A stretch of 64,000 nt of DNA from Candidatus Marinacidobacterium sp. Lineage in GTDB: Bacteria; Acidobacteriota; Vicinamibacteria; Marinacidobacterales; Marinacidobacteraceae. This document shows positions 49,323 to 59,082 of the stretch, one piece after another; position 1 is the first letter of the stretch, and each line of letters starts with the position of its first letter. A program made the translations under genes and the position numbers. The DNA lies in NCBI GenBank assembly GCA_965204755.1, contig OZ242011.1, positions 992,001 through 1,056,000 of the forward strand. Reading direction: 5' to 3'. The notes under the pieces are model-generated. The model was not told the origin of the DNA. It did not search any database and saw nothing but the letters and a program-made list of their open reading frames with translations.

Positions 49323-49375
49323 CGGCCCCGGCGGCGGCGAAAAGCCCGCCCGGAAAGCCCGCCCGCGCGGGCCGG

Positions 49376-51790
49376 TCAGAACCGGAAGAGGCGGGTGAAC
49401 TTGACGATGAAACTGCGCTCTTCGAGCGCCGGGTAACCGGGCGAGAGCGTGTCGCGCTGCGAGTTGTACACCACGAACAGGTCGCTGCCCGGCTGGTATT
49501 CCCAGCGGAACCGGATGTTCGTGGAGAGGCTGTCGGCGGCGGTGTTGTATTGGAGGAAGGCGGCGAAGAAACTGCGCGGCGAGAGCGTGTAGTTCACCCG
49601 CGCGGCGAGCAGGCGGGTGTCGTAGTCGCCGCGCGGCAACTCGATCCAGTTCAGGGAAACCAGCGGTTCGAGCGTGAGACGCGGCATCACTTCCACCCGC
49701 CCGCGCCACGCCAGTTCGCGCCGGGTCCCGTCGAAGAAGCCTCCCTGCTGGAAGGCGAAGTTGCCGGAGATCGGCCGCTGCGGGCCGGCCTGGTAACTCA
49801 CGCGGGCGTAGTCGAAGTCGTAGGCGCCGACCGGAACCGCCAGGTCGGCGCCGAGCGCGAAGTCCTCGCTCAGCACTTCCCGGTTCCGGGCGAACCTCAG
49901 GTTCAGGCTGTCGCCGTGTTCGAGTTCCACATCGCTCCGGAGCGAGAAGATGCGGGTTTCGAGCACATTCTCGTTGTCGGTGGTGTAGTCCACGCTGGCG
50001 GTCCCGCCGATCTTCCGCAGCCAGGAGATCGAGTGCGGGCGCGGGCTGAAGCGCGCCTCGGCGTAGTTCCGGCGGAAGTCGCGCCGCCGGAGGAAACCGA
50101 TCCCCGGGTCGAACCTGTCACCGACGACCAGCCGTTCGACCTGCAGGCCGTAGCGGTCGCCGTTGTAGTCCAACTGGCCGAGGTAACTCAGGCCGGTCCG
50201 GTCTTCGAGTTCGTTCTGCGTCCACGCGGCGTAACCGCGCAGGTCGAGGTGCTGGAAGAAACCGAACCGCGCGTCCACGCCTCCGGCGAAGTTCCGGCCG
50301 AGACCGTTCGACGAATCGGAGCGGTAGGTTCCCATCACCCCGACGGTGCTGCGGGCGAGGATGTCGCGCTTCAGGCGGAATACCGAGAAGTCGGTCTGCG
50401 GTTCGCCGCCGGTCCCGTCGGCGGTCAGGTCGGTCGCCCCGGTGCGGATGGCGAGCGCCCCGAGCGTGTAGTCGCCGATCTTCCCGGTGACCCGGCCGCC
50501 GGCGGTGATCGGGACGGCCAAACCCCCCGAGAGCCCGATGCGGCGGCTGAAGAAGAGGACCGGCGTGCTGCTCGGCGGACCGAAACTGCGGGTGGATCCG
50601 GCCGGCGGCGCGCGCGTCGAAGTGCCGAAACCGAAGATGCCCTGCCCTTCGAGGAAGAACTCGCGCTTTTCCGGGAAGAACAGGCTGAACCGGGTGAGGT
50701 TGACCTGCTGGGCGTCCGCTTCCACCTGCGCGAAGTCGGTGTTCCAGGTGAGGTCGGCGGTGAGGCCGCTGGTGATGCCGATCTTGGCGTCGCCGCCGAA
50801 GTCGCCGTGGAAGGTGTTCTCGAACGCGCCTTCGGCGGCGAACGAACCGGCGGAGTCGCCGATCAGGTAGGGCTTGACTTCGAAGGTGCGGCTGCTCGCC
50901 GGGGCGTCGAGGCCGACCAGCGTGCCGGCGGAACTCACCTTCGTGATGGCGCGCGGCCCGAGCGCCGCCGGCACTTTCGTCAGGTAGGAGATCTCGTTCT
51001 TCCAGCGGACGACCCGGCGGAAGTTGATACCCCAGACCTGCGGCCCGCCGCCGGGATAGCGCAGCGTCTTGAACGGGATCGCCATCTCCATCGTCCAGCC
51101 GTCATCGGTGCGCTGCGCGCGGGAATCCCAGACCGCCGTCCAGTCCCGGTTCACATTCCGCTCGTCCACGATGAGCCCGTCGAAGAAACCGCCGACGGGA
51201 TTCATGTAGAAGAAGAAGGCGTTCCGGCGGTCGTAGAAGGTGTCGAAGATGACCGCGAGGTTCTCGTTGTTGAAGATGCCGAAGTTGTCGCGCCGCATCT
51301 CGGTGGCCACCATGCGGTCCGGCTGGCTGTCGTAACACCGCCCGGCGATATAGACGGTGTCGTCGTCGTAGAAGACCCAGACCTCGGTCTGTTCGGTGGC
51401 CGGCTCCCCTTCGAGCGGCAGCGCCTGGATGAAACCGCCCACTCCCGGCACCCGGTCGTAGATGGGATCGTCGAGCCGGCCGTCGAACTCGAACGGGCCT
51501 TCGAGCCGGGCGGCGCGCATGGTGGCGCGGCCGGCCTCGTCGCGCCGCACCATCTCCGGGAGGTCCGGGGGCGCCGGGCCCCGGATGACGATGGTGGGGG
51601 TATCGTCGGGTTCGGTCGGCGCCGTCGACGCCGCGCCGGCGCGGTTCGCGTCGTCGGGAAGCGCCGCCGACGCCTGGTCGGCCTCGCCGCGCTGCTGCGC
51701 GGGCCCGGAGGAAAGGGCGAGGGCCGGCGCCGGCGTTACCACCGCCGCGACGAACGCGAACGCGGCGAGCCGGCGTTTCGAGTGATCCAC
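49376..51790 (-). CDS. DUF5916-family outer-membrane protein (CBM9-like N-domain + beta-barrel)
   Basis: DGRLDD, EMAIPFKTLRY, WGINFRR, NTDFAQVEAD, FFPEKREFFLEG; ends in Phe. Confidence 0.85.
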   Translation of the reverse strand: MDHSKRRLAAFAFVAAVVTPAPALALSSGPAQQRGEADQASAALPDDANRAGAASTAPTEPDDTPTIVIRGPAPPDLPEMVRRDEAGRATMRAARLEGPFEFDGRLDDPIYDRVPGVGGFIQALPLEGEPATEQTEVWVFYDDDTVYIAGRCYDSQPDRMVATEMRRDNFGIFNNENLAVIFDTFYDRRNAFFFYMNPVGGFFDGLIVDERNVNRDWTAVWDSRAQRTDDGWTMEMAIPFKTLRYPGGGPQVWGINFRRVVRWKNEISYLTKVPAALGPRAITKVSSAGTLVGLDAPASSRTFEVKPYLIGDSAGSFAAEGAFENTFHGDFGGDAKIGITSGLTADLTWNTDFAQVEADAQQVNLTRFSLFFPEKREFFLEGQGIFGFGTSTRAPPAGSTRSFGPPSSTPVLFFSRRIGLSGGLAVPITAGGRVTGKIGDYTLGALAIRTGATDLTADGTGGEPQTDFSVFRLKRDILARSTVGVMGTYRSDSSNGLGRNFAGGVDARFGFFQHLDLRGYAAWTQNELEDRTGLSYLGQLDYNGDRYGLQVERLVVGDRFDPGIGFLRRRDFRRNYAEARFSPRPHSISWLRKIGGTASVDYTTDNENVLETRIFSLRSDVELEHGDSLNLRFARNREVLSEDFALGADLAVPVGAYDFDYARVSYQAGPQRPISGNFAFQQGGFFDGTRRELAWRGRVEVMPRLTLEPLVSLNWIELPRGDYDTRLLAARVNYTLSPRSFFAAFLQYNTAADSLSTNIRFRWEYQPGSDLFVVYNSQRDTLSPGYPALEERSFIVKFTRLFRF

Positions 51791-51870
51791 CGGGACGACG
51801 GGATGGGCGGAACGCGGGAGGGCGAGCGCGGCCGCGAACGGCGGACGAACGGCGGCGGAACCGGGCGCGG

Positions 51871-54543
51871 TCAGAACCGGAACAGGCGGGTGAACTTGAC
51901 CACCAGCGTCCGGTCCGTGAGCCCGAGGACTTCCCCGGAGAGCCCGTCGTCCGCTTCCCGGTTCGTGCTGAACACCACGAACAGGTCGCTGCCCGGCGAA
52001 TACTCCCAGCGGTACCGCAGGTTCGCCGACCAGACCTCCGCCGCCGAGTTGTACTGGACGAGCGCGCCGAAGTAACTGCGCGGCGAGATCGTGTAGGAAG
52101 CCCGCACGCGGGCGAGCGTCGTCTGCACTTCGCCCGCCGGGACGCGAATCCAGTTCAGCCCCAGGTTCGGTTCCAGCGCGAGGCGTTCGTGCACCTCGGT
52201 GCGGCCCCAGTAACTCAGTTCCCGCCGGTCGCCGCCGAAGAAGTCGCCGAACTGGTAGCGGAAGTACCCGGAGACCGGCCGGTGCGAACCGAGCCAGTAG
52301 CGGACGCTGCCGCGCGAGAACCGGTATTCCCCGGCGGGAACGCCGACTTCGTCCACCAGGTCGAAACCGTCGAGCAGCCGTTCCTCGGTATGCGAATAGT
52401 CGAAGACCAACCGGTCGCTGCTCTCGAAGATGGTGCGCAGTTCGACCACATACTCGCGGGTCTCCAACTCGCCGTCGGGGCGGTCGTAGTTGGCCGCATC
52501 GACCTTCACCTCGAACTGCCGGATCGCATCGATCCCGGACGGCCGCGGCGCCAACTTGAGACTGCCGGCGGTCTTGACGAAGTCGCGCCGCCGCACGAAA
52601 CCCATACCCGGGTCGAACAGGTCGCCGAGGTAGAGCCGCTCCGCCGAAACCCCGATCAGGTCCGTGTCGTAGCGCACCTGGCCGAGATAACTCGCGTTCT
52701 CGATCCCGCCCCACGACTCGGTGTTCGAGTCGCGCGTCGCCATGTAGAAGGTGTTGATGCGCAGGTGCTCCGTCGGCGCGAAGTTGCCGTCCACGCCGTA
52801 GAGCGTGTTCGGCCCGCCGCTGCCCTCGTCGAAACTGCGGTGCGTGGCGATCACGCCGATGTTGCTGCGCGAGAAGATGTCGCGCTTCACCCGGAACGCG
52901 CTGAAGTTGGTGGCGTCCACGCCGAGGTCGTCCTGCGCCTGCGTCTGGATGTTGAGCAGCCCCATCGAATAGGCGCCGGCGCGTCCGTGGAGCCGGGCGC
53001 CGCCGAGTATGGGCACCGCGCTCGACCCGGAGATCCCGATGGACCGGCTGAAGAAGGGAATGGGAATGTCGGTCGGCCCGCCGAACGCGCGGCTCTCCCG
53101 GCCGCCGAAGTCGAACACGCCCTGCCCTTCGAGGAAGAACTCGCGCTTCTCCGGGAAGAACAGGCTGAACCGGCTCAGGTTGACCTGCGACTCGTCGTCC
53201 TCGACCTGCGCGAAGTCGGTGTTCCAGGTGAGGTCGGCGGTCAGGCCTTCGGTGACCCCGAACTTGAAGTCCGCGCCGAAGTCGCCGGTGAGGTCGTTCG
53301 TCACGCTGTCGAGCGGCCGGTGCGCCTGCCCGCCGATCGCGTAGGGCTTCAACTCCATGCGGCGAGAACCCGGCGGCGCGACGAGCCCCACCAGCGTAGC
53401 CGCTTCGGAGAGGCGCAGCAGCGCGTCGCGGCTGTAGGCCTGCGAAAGCGGCGTGAAGAACGCGCGTTCGTTCTTGTGCTTGATCAGGCGGCGGAAGTTG
53501 ATGCCCCACAGTTGCGCCCCGCCGGAGGCGTAACGGAGCGAGCGGAAGGGGATCCGCATCTCCACGCTCCAACCGCGTTCGGTGGGCGCGCCTTCGGAAT
53601 ACCAGACGGTGTTCCAGTCGCTGTTCGTGTTGCGCTCGTCGGTGACCTGCGCGTCGAAGAGGCCGCCCTGCTCGTTGGTATGGAAGAGGAAACCGTTCCG
53701 CCGGTCGTAGAAGGTGTCGAGGATGACGGAGAAACTGTCCTGCCAGCCGATGTTCCGGTGGTCGCGCCGCATCTCGCCGCCGATGATGCGGTCGCGGCGC
53801 TGTTCCAGGTCGGCGGAGACATAGAGGCTGTCGCGGTCGTAGAAGACCCAGACGCGCGTGGGTTCGGAGACGGGCGCGCCTTCGAGGGGCTCCTGCTGGA
53901 GGAATCCCTCGGCGGCGGGGACTTCGTCGTACACCGGGTCGTCGAGGACGCCGTCCACGGTGACCCCTTCCGCGAGCGGCCAGGCGCGCAAGGTGACCCG
54001 CCCGTCGTCACTCCGCCGCGCCGACTCCCCGGCGGCGGGCGCCGGCGGGCCGAGGATGCGCCGGGCGAGGGATTCCGGGGGCGGCGGCGGGCGGTCGTCC
54101 GCGACCCGGCCGGCGCCGCGGTCGAGGTCGTCGCGGCCGCGGTCGAGTTCGTCGCCGCCCTGGGGCTCGTTGTCCGGGGCGTCCCGGTCCAAGTCGGCAG
54201 TGGCCGCGGCAGCCTCGGCCGCCAAGGCGAAGTCACCCGGAGCGAAGTCCGACGGAGCCCGCCGGGGCCGTTCGGAGTCGCTCGCCCCGTCCCGCTCTTC
54301 CCCCGCCGAACCCGGCGAGGCCGCGACCGCGGCGAACAGCCCGACCAGCGCGGCGGCCGCCGCCCGCCGCGGCGCGAGGGACGGCCGGGTCGGGCGGCCG
54401 GCGGGCCGGACCGGAAAGTCCCCGGGGAAGTCGTCGGAGAAGTCGCCCGGGAAGTCGCCGGGGCGCACCGATCCCGTAACGCGGAGGGAGGATGGCGCCC
54501 GCCGGGGGCGCGCGGAGAACCGGAACAACGGAGCGCTGGCCAA
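51871..54543 (-). CDS. DUF5916-family outer-membrane protein, tandem paralog
   Basis: Same motifs and identical C-terminus VKFTRLFRF. Start uncertain. Confidence 0.85.
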   Translation of the reverse strand: MASAPLFRFSARPRRAPSSLRVTGSVRPGDFPGDFSDDFPGDFPVRPAGRPTRPSLAPRRAAAAALVGLFAAVAASPGSAGEERDGASDSERPRRAPSDFAPGDFALAAEAAAATADLDRDAPDNEPQGGDELDRGRDDLDRGAGRVADDRPPPPPESLARRILGPPAPAAGESARRSDDGRVTLRAWPLAEGVTVDGVLDDPVYDEVPAAEGFLQQEPLEGAPVSEPTRVWVFYDRDSLYVSADLEQRRDRIIGGEMRRDHRNIGWQDSFSVILDTFYDRRNGFLFHTNEQGGLFDAQVTDERNTNSDWNTVWYSEGAPTERGWSVEMRIPFRSLRYASGGAQLWGINFRRLIKHKNERAFFTPLSQAYSRDALLRLSEAATLVGLVAPPGSRRMELKPYAIGGQAHRPLDSVTNDLTGDFGADFKFGVTEGLTADLTWNTDFAQVEDDESQVNLSRFSLFFPEKREFFLEGQGVFDFGGRESRAFGGPTDIPIPFFSRSIGISGSSAVPILGGARLHGRAGAYSMGLLNIQTQAQDDLGVDATNFSAFRVKRDIFSRSNIGVIATHRSFDEGSGGPNTLYGVDGNFAPTEHLRINTFYMATRDSNTESWGGIENASYLGQVRYDTDLIGVSAERLYLGDLFDPGMGFVRRRDFVKTAGSLKLAPRPSGIDAIRQFEVKVDAANYDRPDGELETREYVVELRTIFESSDRLVFDYSHTEERLLDGFDLVDEVGVPAGEYRFSRGSVRYWLGSHRPVSGYFRYQFGDFFGGDRRELSYWGRTEVHERLALEPNLGLNWIRVPAGEVQTTLARVRASYTISPRSYFGALVQYNSAAEVWSANLRYRWEYSPGSDLFVVFSTNREADDGLSGEVLGLTDRTLVVKFTRLFRF

Positions 54544-54736
54544 GAGCCGCCGGCCGCAGGAGTGACTCGCCCGGAAGCGGCGGGAGTCTAGCCGTCCCCG
54601 CCGCGTTCCCGCGCCGGGGAAACGGAGTCCCGGAGCCGCTCACAGCGGCGCGCTGTCCCCGGCGCGGGCCGGGTCGGCGGGTCGGGCTCCATCGGGCTCG
54701 GTGGGTCCGTTCCGGGAGACGCGGAGGCCCCGCCGG

Positions 54737-55161
54737 AAAGACACAGGCTCGCGATCCGAAAAACACAGGCTCATGCCGGAAAGACACAGGCTCGACCAAA
54801 GACACAGGCTCCCGCGGCCAAAGACACAGGCTTCCGAAGAATCGGCGGTCTGCCCACCTGCGCCCGCCGCACGCTCGTGAGCCGTCCCATCGGCGCAAGA
54901 GATGCCGTTGTTCGGGCCTCCATGCGCGTTCGGGCCGCGTCCACCTCCCGGAACCGCGCCCTGCGCCGTTCCCCGGAGCGCCACCCCGCCGCACGCGTCC
55001 CAAGTCATATAACTGTAACTAAATCAAGGAGTTAGAATACAAAAACACAGGCTGCCGACCTAAAGACACAGGCTAAAGACACAGGCTCGCGGTCGAAAAA
55101 CACAGGCTAAAGACACAGGCTCGACCCAAAGACACAGGCTCCCCGCCGAAAGACACAGGGT
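54737..55161 (+). repeat. Intergenic array of twelve 13-bp direct repeats AAA(G/A)ACACAGGCT in two clusters
   Basis: Copies start at 54737, 54759, 54780, 54798, 54820, then 55041, 55062, 55075, 55096, 55109, 55128 and 55149 (last copy has one mismatch). Confidence 0.95.
55022..55034 (+). promoter_or_regulatory. IHF-binding consensus in AT-rich patch
   Basis: AATCAAGGAGTTA is a perfect match to WATCAANNNNTTR. Confidence 0.6.
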
Positions 55162-55265
55162 CCGACCTGCCGGAAGCGGGCGCGAGAGTCGCCCCGGACC
55201 GGCCTCCCGGCCGACCTCCGCGCGGCGGGAGGGCCGCATCCGGTATCGTCGGCAGCGGCGAACCC

Positions 55266-56330
55266 ATGTCTCGCGGAGAGTCCGAACGGCGGCCATCGGA
55301 GGAGGCGCTTTCCTCGGAGCCGGTAGAGACCGGGACGCAGCAGCCACCGAAGCCGGCGTCGGGGATTCCGGGCGCGCTCCGCCGGCTCGGAGGCGGCATC
55401 GCGGATCGGTGGCGACGAGTCGGCGGCCTGTCCGGTCTGCTGGCGCCGGTGGCCGACGGCGCCCGTTGGCTCTACCGGAACCGCAGCCGCATCGCCACCG
55501 GAGTCCGCCGGTTCGGCGAAGTCCTGGTGGCGATCCTGAAGACCGCCGCCCGCGTCGGCGCCGTCCTCGTCCGGATGGGCGAGGCGCTGGCCCGTCTCGA
55601 AGAGCAGCGCGCGGCCAAACCGATCGGGCCGGGCCGGAAACGAGCCGCCCGCGCCGGCGCCGGCCTCTCCCGATTCGGACGACGACTCGACGACTTCGGC
55701 CGGGGCCTGCTCCCGGTGGCGGACGGCATCGAGGACATCGGTGAACACCTCGAGAGCGCCGCCCCCGGAGACGCCACCCCCCTGCCCCCGGCGCTGCCGG
55801 ATCCGACGCCTCCCGCCGCTCCGTCCCGAGCGTCCGAGCGGGCGCCCGACCCCGCGCCCCCGCCTGCACCCCGGAAGGCCGGGACCGCTCCCGCGGGCCG
55901 CGTTTCCTCCCCGCCGCCGGCGAGTCCCGAAGCCGCGCCCGCTGTCGAGCCGCGCGCCCCCGAACCGGCCGCGCCGCCACCCGCGGCCGCCGAGCGCCCG
56001 CGTCCCGCCCCGAAGTCCGCCACCACCCGACCGAAGACACCGCGCGCCCCCGTCGCCGACGACCCGGCGGCGGCCCTCCCGGAGGAGTTGCTCACCCGCA
56101 TCCGCGGACTCCGCCGGCGCCCCGGCCGCGCCACGATGGAGACCCTCATCGAAGACATCTGCCGCGCCCGCGAGTGGAGCACCACCGCCGAACTCTCCGC
56201 CATCCTCGGCCGGGATTCCCGCAGTCTGAACCGGACCTACCTCAAACCCATGGCCGCCGCCGGCCGCCTCGTCCGCCGCTACCCGGACCGATTCAGCCAC
56301 CCCGACCAGGCCTTCCGGGCCGCGAAGTGA
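55266..56330 (+). CDS. Protein with amphipathic N-terminal helices, Pro-rich linker and C-terminal winged-HTH (Fic-like C-terminal type)
   Basis: C-terminal TTAELSAILGRDSRSLNRTYLKPMAAAGRLVRRYPDRFSHPDQAFRA. Confidence 0.72.
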   Translation: MSRGESERRPSEEALSSEPVETGTQQPPKPASGIPGALRRLGGGIADRWRRVGGLSGLLAPVADGARWLYRNRSRIATGVRRFGEVLVAILKTAARVGAVLVRMGEALARLEEQRAAKPIGPGRKRAARAGAGLSRFGRRLDDFGRGLLPVADGIEDIGEHLESAAPGDATPLPPALPDPTPPAAPSRASERAPDPAPPPAPRKAGTAPAGRVSSPPPASPEAAPAVEPRAPEPAAPPPAAAERPRPAPKSATTRPKTPRAPVADDPAAALPEELLTRIRGLRRRPGRATMETLIEDICRAREWSTTAELSAILGRDSRSLNRTYLKPMAAAGRLVRRYPDRFSHPDQAFRAAK

Positions 56331-56672
56331 CGCCTCGACGAGAACGGCGCCTACGCCTGCCCCCCGCCCCGTTCTCGCTGCTTTTCCGGGAGACCCGCTT
56401 CGTGCTATATACGATTCTTGGCGTGCGCTCCCGTCCCGCCGGCGGTCCCGCGCCCGAAGGCGACCACGCCCCGACCGGCGGAGCGGTGGCGTCGGGCTCC
56501 GCCTCCCGGCCGCGCTCGGGCATGATGGTTTCTGTCGTGCTCCCGGAGAAGAATCCCCGTATCGCGCCCTTCGGCTCCCTCCGCGGGCGCGACCCCGCCG
56601 ATGTCCCGCACTTCTCTCTTCTGCCCCCCTGCGGCGAGTCCCTTCGTCCGCTTCGAGTCGGGTAAGTCGCCG

Positions 56673-57761
56673 ATGACCCGAACCGTGGAACGCTCGCTCG
56701 ACCCGGCGGCGCGCTTTCGCTTCATCGACCTCTTCGCCGGCATCGGCGGCATGCGCCGCGGCTTCGAAACGGCAGGCGGCCGGTGCGTGTTCACGAGCGA
56801 GTGGAACCGTTTCGCCCAGCAGACCTACGCCGCCAACCACGATTGCGACCACCCGCTCGTCGGTGACATCCGCGCCGTGGACAGCGAGGACATTCCCCCG
56901 CACGACCTTCTGTTGGCCGGCTTTCCGTGCCAACCCTTCTCCATCGCGGGCGTCTCGAAGAAGAACGCCCTGAACCGCCCTCACGGTTTCCGCTGCGAAG
57001 TCCAGGGAACACTCTTCTTCGAGATCGCCCGCATCCTTCGACACCACCGTCCGGCCGCATTCCTTCTCGAGAATGTCAAGAATCTCCTGAACCACGACCG
57101 CGGCCGCACCTTCGAGATCATCAAGACGACACTCGAAAAGGACTTGGGCTACACCGTCTCCTGCCGGGTCATCGACGCCCGCTCGTTCGTGCCCCAGCAC
57201 CGCGAACGAGTCTTCATCGCCGGATTCCGTGAGCCGACCCCCTTCTCGCTGGACGAGATGGCATTGCCTCCCCCGAACCGCGGTCCCCGCCTCCGGGAAG
57301 TGCTTCATCCGGAAGCCGGCCTCGAACCCGCGGAGCCTCCGTACACGGTCGGGCCCAAGGCACGCGTCTCGTCGCGGTACACGCTGACACCGCACCTCTG
57401 GACCTACCTCCAACAGTACGCCGAAAAGCACCGAAGCAAGGGGAACGGCTTCGGCTACGGCCTGGTCGGTCGCGGAGATGTCAGCCGGACGCTCTCCGCG
57501 CGTTACTACAAGGATGGCTCGGAAATCCTGGTCCGCCGGCCCGGTCCCGCCGCCCCGCGTCGCCTCACCCCCAGAGAGTGCGCTCGGCTGATGGGCTTCG
57601 ACCGGCCAGGGCGACCTCCTTTCGAGATCCCGGTCTCTGACACCCAAGCGTATCGCCAGTTCGGAAACGCCGTCGTCGTACCGGTAGTCGAGGCCGTGGC
57701 GCACCAAATGGTTCCACACCTCACCGGCATCGTCGCCGGGGCGGCGCGGCGTGTCGCCTGA
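56673..57761 (+). CDS. dcm: DNA cytosine-5 methyltransferase, Dcm/M.EcoRII-like
   Basis: [55 protein letters not shown]. Confidence 0.95.
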
Positions 57762-57810
57762 TTCCAGCGTCACCTGATGATCGCCACCCGCCGTCTCCCG
57801 AGTTAACCCG

Positions 57811-59082
57811 ATGTCCAACGCGCATCGTCTCCGCCGATGGATCGAGTCCGCCGCCACGGCACGGATCATCTACGCCAAGAGACTCTCCGGGAACGACACC
57901 TTGGCAAACGGCGCCAATCAGGCCGGACTCTATGTGAGCAAACCAGTCGCCTTCGACATCGCGCCATCCGTCGACACCGTGGACAAGGAGAACCCCAAGT
58001 CGTGGTTTCCGCTGACCATCGTGTCGCACGGCCTGCCTCAACGCGCTGTCGTGCTCACTTACTACAACAGCAAACGTATTTCCGAATCCAGGGACAGCGA
58101 CAAGGAGACGGAGGAGGAGGGGAAGAAGAAGACGAAGAGAGACGAGGTGCGAATAACCCGTTTCGGCGGCAGGAACTCGCCGCTTCTGAACCCGGACAGT
58201 ACCGGGGCATTGGCCATCTTTGCCTTTTTCCAATCCGGATCCGACCTGCGCTCCGAGGTTTGGGTCTGCCACCGTGAGGCCGAGGAGGAAATCGCCGAGG
58301 AGTGGCTCGGCATGGTTGATCCGGGGCGCACCGTTCTGTTCTACCCGGAGTCCGGGCTCCCGGTCATCCCTCAGCGAGTTGGAAAGTGCCGATTCTCGTC
58401 GGGCGAACTACCCCTTGCCTGGCGCGAGGCCTATCCGTCCGGCGAGGACATAGTCGCCAAGACGCTGGAGATTCTCCCGACCACGGCAGGTGACGCCGAC
58501 AAGCGCCTGCTGCGACGGCGACAGTGCGAGTTGGAGATCTTCGAGAGCATTCAGGAGGCGATCGAACTTCCGAGGGTGAAAGCCGGCTTCGACGGCTTGG
58601 GGCCGTTCCTGCAATGCGCGATGAGCATCGTCAACAGGCGCAAGTCCCGCAGCGGTCGGTCGCTCGAACTCCAAGTGCGGCAGATCCTGCTGGAGAGCGG
58701 ATTCGTTCAGGGTGAGCACTTCGACCACGATGTGATCTCCGAGGGTTCGAGCCGTCCCGACTTCGTGTTCCCGTCGCAAGCCGCGTACTCGAATCCTCGA
58801 TACGCGGAAAGCGATCTGCGGATGCTGGCGGTAAAGACTACCTGTCGCGATCGCTGGCGCCAGATCTTGACCGAAGCTCACCGCATCTCGTGCAAGCATC
58901 TGCTCACGCTGCAACGGGGCGTCAGCGAGAATCAATTCCGACAGATTCAGGAGGCGCGCGTCCGCCTCGTTGTGCCCGAGGATCTTCACAAGAGATATCT
59001 CGCCTCGATACGGCCTCACCTCCTGACGCTCGAAAAGTTTTTGAAGTCTTTGGGCTCGCTCCTCAATATCCCCGCTCGTTAG
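57811..59082 (+). CDS. EcoRII-like type IIE restriction endonuclease
   Basis: N-terminal KRLSGND...NQAGLY effector domain; NRRKSRSGRSLE, RPDFVFP, KTTCRDRWRQILTE. Confidence 0.92.
   Translation: MSNAHRLRRWIESAATARIIYAKRLSGNDTLANGANQAGLYVSKPVAFDIAPSVDTVDKENPKSWFPLTIVSHGLPQRAVVLTYYNSKRISESRDSDKETEEEGKKKTKRDEVRITRFGGRNSPLLNPDSTGALAIFAFFQSGSDLRSEVWVCHREAEEEIAEEWLGMVDPGRTVLFYPESGLPVIPQRVGKCRFSSGELPLAWREAYPSGEDIVAKTLEILPTTAGDADKRLLRRRQCELEIFESIQEAIELPRVKAGFDGLGPFLQCAMSIVNRRKSRSGRSLELQVRQILLESGFVQGEHFDHDVISEGSSRPDFVFPSQAAYSNPRYAESDLRMLAVKTTCRDRWRQILTEAHRISCKHLLTLQRGVSENQFRQIQEARVRLVVPEDLHKRYLASIRPHLLTLEKFLKSLGSLLNIPAR

Follow-up and report, generated by a model that had tools for sequence, protein, structure and literature searches.

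What might a bacterial chromosome be doing with twelve direct copies of one 13-bp word, set around an AT-rich patch in front of a gene of no recognised family? The question is raised by a locus of Candidatus Marinacidobacterium sp. within a stretch of 64,000 nucleotides (contig OZ242011.1, positions 992,001 to 1,056,000 of the forward strand; here called the window, to whose own numbering coordinates refer unless they are given as genome positions). The single-contig assembly that contains it (3.98 Mb, 71.7% GC) is referred to as G000 and that of a congener as G001. A first-pass annotation, made from the letters alone, had proposed that the product of the next gene, ending in a winged helix-turn-helix (wHTH), may bind and loop the repeats as a cis-acting array/protein module at the edge of a defence island. 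From sequence comparisons we consider it very probable that array and protein form a pair. The locus as a whole seems to us rather likely to be a docking platform of the wHTH protein, with a regulatory function and belonging to a lineage-specific family; a regulatory or boundary role, taken by itself, is put forward tentatively.

The repeat array and its counterparts beside homologous genes

The 13-mer AAARACACAGGCT has 12 matches in the window, all on the + strand, of which 11 are exact and one, the last copy (55149-55161, reading GGGT), carries a single mismatch; the chance expectation is 0.01 copies, and 12 were reached in none of 100 dinucleotide shuffles. Cluster 1 (54737..54832) consists of five copies of the form AAA(G/A)ACACAGGCT starting at 54737, 54759, 54780, 54798 and 54820, and cluster 2 (55041..55161) of seven starting at 55041, 55062, 55075, 55096, 55109, 55128 and 55149. 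The start-to-start spacings are 22, 21, 18 and 22 bp in the first cluster, 221 bp across the gap, and 21, 13, 21, 13, 19 and 21 bp in the second. Both the count of twelve direct copies in clusters of five and seven and the spacings within the clusters agree exactly with the first-pass annotation; its description of the spacings as mostly about two helical turns holds for the steps of 21 and 22 bp, but not for those of 13, 18 and 19 bp. The array occupies the 722-bp divergent intergenic region between a DUF5916 protein gene (890 aa, 51871-54543, - strand) and the gene of the wHTH protein, P0001 (354 aa, 55266..56330, + strand). Between the clusters lies a GC-rich spacer of 168 bp (54833..55000) that is poorly conserved relative to the syntenic array of G001, and within it the strain differences of sequencing run X3 are concentrated (54877-54922). 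In contigs from sequencing runs aligned to the locus, those from short reads end inside the array; one 11.9-kb contig from a sponge metagenome of another study (X8) covers the array, the wHTH gene and the start of the methylase gene behind it, and the runs that contain the locus include sponge and marine metagenomes.

We searched for homologs of P0001 in 55 genomes of the order, comprising one family (f1) with G000 and 27 others and two sister families (n = 8 and n = 19). Homologs were found in 20 of the 55 genomes, in up to 7 copies per genome, and all of these belong to f1 (19 of the other 27 in f1, against none of the 8 and none of the 19 in the sister families); a profile built from 29 members (alignment A2) detected the protein family in 21 of the 27. 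Outside the order, four sampled genomes of the class match this profile, partially and mostly with the wHTH alone. Among 1.84 billion representative proteins, 64 fall below 1e-30, about 45 of them full-length, and 988 fall below 1e-10, mostly via the wHTH alone.

At 30 homolog loci the flanking 1.5 kb were surveyed for arrays, defined as at least six copies of a 9-mer with one mismatch allowed. A direct-repeat array was found at 27 of them, lying upstream on the strand of the gene in 19 cases, downstream in 6 and ambiguously in 2; one of the three loci without an array is at a contig edge with only 17 bp of upstream sequence. At least seven exact copies of a 9-mer within 700 bp occur at 23 of the 30 loci, compared to 12 of 600 random windows of 3.6 kb each from G000 (18 of 600 for at least six copies). 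In other genera the arrays comprise 8-21 units with a period of 31-33 bp, and at two loci every step is 32 bp (19/19 and 20/20).

The word itself differs from paralog to paralog. At least 12 word classes were found among the homolog loci, most of them fitting a frame TA(T/G)(C/T)GAC - 4 or 5 variable bases - (A/G)GCT; examples are AAAGACACAGGCT, TAGTGACAGGAGCT, TAGTGACGGTAGCT, TATCGCACCCAG(C/T)T, TATCGACCCCAGCT, TATCGCCCCAGGCT, TATCGACCGGAGCT, TATCGACGCCGGTGG, ATAGACGCATGCT, TTGACCATGGCT, GAATGCGGATAGCT and GAATTGTGTATAGCT. In the A2 alignment the wHTH is the best-conserved part of the protein, and its variation lies mainly at the start of the recognition helix (about residues 318-331 of P0001) and in the wing, which terminates in a conserved Q-A-(Y/F). 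The helix begins with S-L-N-R-T-Y in P0001 and elsewhere with L-S-R-R-Y, L-T-R-R-Y, L-V-R-R-H, L-Q-K-R-Q or L-A-R-R-H. Loci with the same word (L381, L382 and L383; L391 and L392) have near-identical recognition helices. In genome G008, a pair of close paralogs (73% identical over the N-terminal 135 residues) has three differences at the helix start and words two bases apart, and between the orthologs of G000 and G001 helix and wing differ while the words differ at the 3' end (GGCT versus GGGY). The proposal that homologs should have arrays whose word co-varies with the protein thus had a positive outcome, with 27 of 30 loci and at least 12 words, and the co-variation of helix and word is suggestive of the pattern expected of cognate pairs.

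The control patch and the protein

Immediately before cluster 2 lies an AT-rich control patch of about 40 bp (55001..55040, + strand; GTAAC ... GGAGTTAG) with relatives in other genera and in further arrays of G000. At 55022..55034 (+ strand) it contains the perfect match to the IHF consensus that had been reported (13/13); in the alignment with G001 four free positions of this site differ and the consensus positions are retained. The consensus pattern has 6 occurrences in the whole G000 genome, which has three HU/IHF-family genes. The other four G000 arrays of the same word show near matches only, and the perfect match is peculiar to this copy. Conserved instead is an AT-rich element ending in GACTTAG/GAGTTAG. 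In the families with 32-bp period a conserved element cgTAAGTGAC..GTAACaa.GACTTAG stands between array and gene, and the patch of the window (..ctGTAACtaaatcaaGGAGTTAG..) and those of the other G000 arrays look like relatives of this GTAAC..GACTTAG element. It may be an IHF-type bend site, and equally a promoter or operator. A further block, GCATCCGGTATCGTCGGC (55236..55253, + strand), lies 13-30 bp 5' of the start codon, is conserved in G001 and is possibly the own promoter or leader of the wHTH gene.

The gene at 55266-56330 is backed by its codon-position GC pattern and by 17 close homolog clusters, none of which has a Pfam family; for P0001 itself, no Pfam family was found at E <= 0.01. 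AlphaFold2, run on alignment A2, predicts three parts: an N-terminal helical domain (residues 38-164, 55377..55757; pLDDT, the confidence score of the model, ~70-80) of four helices, two of them long (38-51, 54-71, 73-115 and 123-164); a Pro/Ala-rich linker (residues 165-265, 55758..56060) that is predicted to be disordered and varies in length among paralogs; and a C-terminal wHTH (residues 266-354, 56061..56327; pLDDT >93), in keeping with the first reading of this gene end. Other paralogs begin with M-L-(N/D)-L-R-S-E-E-P ... P-P-G-L-D-A-I-R-A-W-I-R-K-P-R-P-W-L, followed by a Trp/Arg-rich helix. A Foldseek search of the P0001 model against the PDB gave nothing at E <= 0.001, and no match fell below E 0.1. 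Minimal wHTH domains fit best (Z-alpha, the C-terminus of the Fic protein 4rgl, FeoC and PapI); the fit of Z-alpha (template-modelling score 0.83-0.85 normalised to the target, E ~0.1-0.3) probably merely reflects the minimal wHTH fold of the model. Cores in which purines and pyrimidines alternate (ACACA, TGTGTATA and ACGCATGC) are present in three repeat words. In a PDB profile search the N-terminal domain matched coiled coils and chemoreceptor bundles, and 4rgl was matched weakly (E 0.22). By sequence, the family nearest to the wHTH is Fic-like_C (PF21247; gathering cut-off 27 bits), with scores of 20-29 bits for full-length homologs, 22-38 bits for shorter or fused wHTH relatives and none for P0001. 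This domain also terminates many AlbA_2/HATPase_c_4 proteins. A wHTH common to the module and to adjacent Fic/AlbA_2 proteins was considered and rejected, as there is no significant similarity.

Dispersed arrays and gene neighbourhoods

The exact 13-mers of the window occur 47 times in G000, all within five loci, at about 245.6 kb (+), 588.2 kb (-), 1046.9 kb (+, the window array), 2291.9 kb (+) and 3357.0 kb (+) of the genome. This set, here called type A (word AAAGACACAGGCT), consists of one 'home' array, that of the window, and four 'orphan' arrays without a wHTH gene. The five loci have a common anatomy of two clusters that are 190-252 bp apart, with an AT-rich patch, whose end reads GGAGTTA, GGACTTA or AAGTTAC, ahead of the second one, and both clusters of each array close with tails that are alike. 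Apart from the repeats, the five copies can hardly be aligned, and their neighbours are unrelated: one array comes after era, with a convergent metalloprotease-like gene on its other side, another lies between a PD-(D/E)XK gene and that of pyruvate kinase, and another between two convergent genes. The genome-wide search thus revealed that the motif is dispersed and not unique to the window. Of the objection that the 13-mer might be a dispersed repeat unrelated to the gene, the dispersal is true, while the unrelatedness is outweighed by the evidence from the homolog loci.

Three wHTH paralogs are present in G000, and each has a word nearby. Type B (word GAATTGTGTATAG) comprises 100 exact copies at 9 loci (genome positions 357.9k, 756.0k, 1207.9k, 1660.0k, 2045.5k, 2895.5k, 2970.8k, 3119.1k and 3494.2k; L420, L424-L431), one directly before the paralog gene at 2.046 Mb and 8 orphans; these arrays are bipartite (4-6 plus 4-9 copies), with a gap of 153-206 bp and a period of 20-22 or ~30 bp. 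Type C, GGATCGA(C/G)CCC, has 67 copies just behind the gene of the third paralog (genome positions 2587861-2589887, L421) and arrays of 67 and 45 copies elsewhere (339978-341740, L432; 2780725-2782581, L434), with four units making up each 120-bp super-repeat. Isolated type C sites are also found within spacers of the type A and B arrays. A role similar to that of DnaA boxes, Ter or KOPS was rejected, since the arrays are oriented without any rule with respect to dnaA (1.82 Mb) or to the weak GC skew.

The triple-core pattern of the window word was found in 2 of the 55 genomes of the order, G000 and G001. In G001, at least five loci carry arrays, in which the word has changed to AAAGACACAGGGY, alongside the variants GACACATGCY and GACACCTGCT; some of the arrays are giant (~35 units), and they include tandem 340-bp blocks. 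Only the window locus is syntenic between the two species (DUF5916 gene, array, wHTH ortholog), and its alignment shows conservation of the repeats and of the AT-patch core, while the inter-cluster spacer is barely alignable. This drift of the spacer, together with the confinement of all 47 exact 13-mers to five loci, indicates that the word is under selection. Of the four orphan arrays, the three that were compared (B588, D2291 and E3356) are absent from G001: D2291, with its seven 22-bp units, is an extra ~700 bp between two convergent genes that are ~40 bp apart in G001, and E3356 is missing together with a PD-(D/E)XK gene. Synteny walks through the other 27 genomes of f1, G001 among them, met no array behind era, and 48 of 49 loci of DUF5916 homologs have none upstream; the window word is therefore genus-specific. 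Orphan arrays of a shared word are also present in G008 (one word at four loci and another at two, with one home each) and in G014, G024 and G042 (three or four loci of TATCGCACCCAG apiece). A stricter scan of viral sequences for the array pattern gave one chance coding match. Two observations from G001 may be added. At 3910203-3910247 and 4195003-4195047 (L080, L081) a 19-bp tandem unit, GACACAGGGTGGTCGATCC, unites the core of the type A word and a type C-like core in one repeat. At 132500-137500 (L079) there is a ~35-unit array of 33-35-bp units whose spacers could form CCGG..CCGG hairpins; it abuts a gene that we take, from the likeness of its N-terminal translation, to encode an IS1634-like transposase.

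Behind the wHTH gene of the window, and co-oriented with it, are the genes of a Dcm-type C5 methylase (56601-57761, + strand) and of an EcoRII-type endonuclease with EcoRII N and C domains (57811-59082, + strand), which together (56601-59082) form a complete EcoRII-type restriction-modification pair. At the syntenic site of G001 the cargo consists of two NOV_C genes and two unknowns, and in both genomes it has the wHTH gene on one side and, on the other, a HATPase_c gene that is convergent. On the other side of the array, partly inside the DUF5916 gene, the window contains two adjoining stretches ~2.5 kb apart with ~67-69% DNA identity (49368-54058; self-matches 52837-54058 versus 50321-51587 and 51862-52286 versus 49368-49782).

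A Pfam survey of 137 neighbouring proteins at 18 modules gave toxin-antitoxin proteins (PIN, Phd/YefM, ParE, HepT/MNT, RES), mobile-element proteins (insertion sequence (IS) transposases, integrases and one serine recombinase) and others (Fic, MmeI, N6 and N4 methylases, AlbA_2/HATPase_c_4, DUF4143/AAA_14 and type I-U Cas proteins). The wHTH gene often stands first in a variable toxin-antitoxin, restriction or defence cassette. The next gene at the 18 modules is co-oriented within 420 bp in 9, co-oriented but further off in 5 and opposite in 4. The cargo behind the wHTH gene is of several types: PIN/Phd, trypsin-like peptidases with DUF4143, NOV_C, nucleotidyltransferase and Dcm/EcoRII. Orphan arrays frequently have a housekeeping gene on one side and, on the other, a defence-like gene, for example a DUF1156, SNF2, PD-(D/E)XK, Uma2 or DUF4143 gene. 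The DUF1156 gene upstream of array A245 (L001:1714-4582; 243.1-245.0 kb of G000) has at least 10 matches in G001 with 72-84% DNA identity and is a multi-copy methylase-type gene that is possibly mobile. In G014 (1911500-1928000, L438), two inward-pointing TATCGCACCCAG orphan arrays bracket a 10.5-kb island with core genes outside; the island contains a ParE toxin, a PALP enzyme, McrB/McrC, an HTH_3 regulator, an IS and DUF4143. Of the original view of a cis-acting array and its protein bordering a defence island, the module and its variable defence cargo are thus retained, but its action would not be confined to cis.

Proposed role, alternatives and known systems

We propose that one C-terminal winged-helix domain would read one 13-mer, while bound copies would associate by means of the helical domain at the N-terminus and of the long, flexible linker. 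As modelled, a helical domain, flexible linker and wHTH would suit assembly along phased sites, perhaps bridging clusters or loci. Two clusters and a bent AT-rich patch would then join in a single large nucleoprotein complex that covers the control region of the gene, and this complex would set the expression of the wHTH gene and of the variable cassette behind it, here Dcm and EcoRII. At home the protein would be autoregulatory. As four orphan arrays of the same word exist in G000, it would act in trans as well as in cis, occupying these arrays too. The window locus would be one member of a lineage-specific family with several paralogs per genome, each with its own word and its own home and orphan arrays, and the array sets would tend to core-gene junctions with swappable defence, toxin-antitoxin or IS islands. 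Such a place at the head or edges of variable cassettes suggests that the module controls or insulates genes that were acquired.

Several observations weigh against this proposal. The arrangement is uneven, with the 6 downstream arrays and the 3 loci without any among the 30. A convergent gene follows 3 of the 5 type A arrays, so that not all of them can be promoters for what follows. The gene calls rest on a crude GC3 script. An obviously defence-like neighbour is present at only about half of the 14 type A and B arrays of G000. The 13-, 18- and 19-bp spacings of the window-type array are out of helical phase, and a simple scan found no sigma-70-type promoter in 54500-55400, the AT patch included. 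Finally, protein and word share their phylogeny, so their co-variation is not independent proof of contact.

A more far-reaching version would see a chromosomal 'address' system in which paralogs nucleate on their own words, written in dispersed phased arrays where horizontally acquired defence, toxin-antitoxin or IS islands begin and end, and, self-associating via helical N-terminal domain and long linker, build boundary or silencing complexes that insulate or co-control these islands. We regard this as doubtful; if true, a bacterium would possess chromatin boundaries for foreign DNA that are nucleated by sequence, with a specificity that diversifies like incompatibility groups.

Chromosome architecture is an unlikely primary function. 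The proteins would here bridge or tether the dispersed arrays via their N-terminal helical, Trp/Arg-rich region, with effects on expression being secondary. This would fit the 5, 9 and at least 3 dispersed arrays of the three G000 paralogs, the single sites of the third word inside type A and type B spacers, and a domain order (oligomerisation-type domain, long linker, DNA-binding domain) that by analogy resembles H-NS and Lsr2, with Noc as a parallel for membrane tethering. However, the absence of B588, D2291 and E3356 from G001 would be odd for a structural role, and array orientation follows no rule relative to dnaA or GC skew.

It is distinctly unlikely that the arrays are the centromere or iteron set of integrated plasmid-, phage- or integrative-conjugative-element-type elements, with the wHTH protein as a ParR/TubR/StbA-like binder or Rep-like initiator and the words as incompatibility groups. 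Two clusters around an AT-rich, IHF-like patch, placed upstream of the gene of the binder, do resemble, by analogy, parC of R1, tubC of pBtoxis, the stbDRs of R388 and the gamma origin of R6K; there are multiple specificities per genome, and the surroundings are rich in IS elements, integrases and toxin-antitoxin genes. Yet Rep, ParA/MinD-type, ParM/actin-like and TubZ/tubulin-like proteins account for 0 of the 137 neighbours at the 18 loci (E <= 1e-4), which extends the earlier remark that no Rep or ParA/B is visible, and no cytomotive NTPase gene was found beside the wHTH gene in the window. P0001 has a single wHTH and no Rep_3 match, up to nine arrays of the same word lie on a single-contig assembly, several of them amid housekeeping genes (era, pyruvate kinase), and the home locus is syntenic in two species with a core gene alongside.

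We consider it very unlikely that the arrays are functionless, that is, a selfish or neutral dispersed minisatellite, similar to miniature inverted-repeat transposable elements, near a multi-copy island gene. Their presence or absence at precise intergenic sites between species (the extra ~700 bp at D2291, the missing E3356), the recent unit duplications (the 22-bp units of D2291, the 340-bp blocks of G001) and the common tail of the clusters would be expected of such elements; against this, the words stay intact while the spacers drift, each paralog has its own word beside it in several genera, the phasing at 32 bp is strict, and neither terminal inverted repeats nor target duplications were seen at one filled/empty pair, for which the alignment is poor. 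A repeat-rich small RNA, transcribed from the AT-rich patch as a CsrB-like protein sponge, can hardly be the explanation: all copies are on one strand with variable spacing in the window type, and some G001 arrays have hairpin-capable CCGG..CCGG spacers, but there is no Rfam match near threshold, CsrA (PF02599) and Hfq (PF17209) were not found in the 89%-complete G000, no terminator stands out in a scan of 54500-55400, and the arrays have a cognate DNA-binding gene and, in related families, strict helical phasing.

How does the proposed docking platform compare to known systems? In type II partition of plasmid R1, the ribbon-helix-helix protein ParR works on parC with ParM as its partner. The likeness is that direct repeats form two clusters about the region that controls the gene of the binder itself, with autoregulation to be expected; here, unlike in ParR-parC, the binder is a wHTH protein, no NTPase is among the 137 neighbours, the locus is chromosomal, and there are many arrays and paralogs with different words. 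Closer in the type of binder are TubR-tubC (pBtoxis, type III) and StbA-stbDRs (R388), where a winged-helix or HTH protein binds short direct iterons in two blocks. They share with our loci repeat blocks upstream of the gene of the binder (co-oriented at 19 of 30 loci) and differ in that a TubZ or conjugation context is not seen here, while a helical N-terminal domain and a ~100-residue disordered linker are added and orphan arrays lie megabases apart.

The Omega repressor of pSM19035, a small ribbon-helix-helix protein, binds arrays of 7-10 contiguous heptads at several loci and couples the regulation of copy control, partition and toxin-antitoxin genes. It likewise has arrays for one protein at several separate loci; in contrast to this plasmid-borne system, the words described here are 13-15 bp long at 13-33-bp spacing, have a predicted wHTH reader and are found on a chromosome. 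Iteron origins (R6K gamma, pSC101, P1/F) have an AT-rich patch and an IHF-type site by about seven direct repeats, with a second cluster near; the array described here resembles them in layout, with its AT-rich patch and IHF-consensus match beside seven repeats and a second cluster nearby. Unlike in such origins, there is no Rep protein with two winged helices, only one wHTH and no Rep_3 match, five to nine arrays of the same word lie on one replicon, and the locus is syntenic between species.

Fic-like_C (PF21247) is the nearest sequence family of the C-terminal domain, and 4rgl is among its neighbours in both fold and sequence; unlike in Fic-like_C proteins, the N-terminal helical domain of the module has no family, and we know of no repeat arrays for Fic-type wHTH domains. 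Regulators of the BrxR/CapW type (wHTH-WYL) head defence islands and have a single inverted repeat as operator. A wHTH gene that comes first in line before variable defence genes is common to both, whereas the modules described here have no WYL or sensor domain, an array of 8-21 direct repeats in the place of the operator, and orphan arrays.

A literature search, judged from titles and the beginnings of abstracts and thus not proof of absence in print, gave no description of such a module. Modules of this kind, in which a direct-repeat array is matched by a cognate binder that regulates itself, are familiar. We neither know nor found a counterpart of the protein family itself, of its restriction to one family of sponge-associated Acidobacteria, or of the combination of several orthogonal words per genome and dispersed orphans, without a motor or initiator and linked to the heads and borders of defence islands. 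Should the pairing hold, at least a dozen orthogonal protein/word pairs on one scaffold could lead to a wHTH recognition code and to orthogonal DNA-binding parts, and would offer a handle on the control or bounding of defence islands as well as a marker of island borders in the lineage. Readers of direct-repeat arrays are known mainly from the origins and centromeres of plasmids and phages; here the same array-reading logic would appear as a chromosomal, multi-paralog family that works without motor or initiator in uncultivated sponge symbionts.

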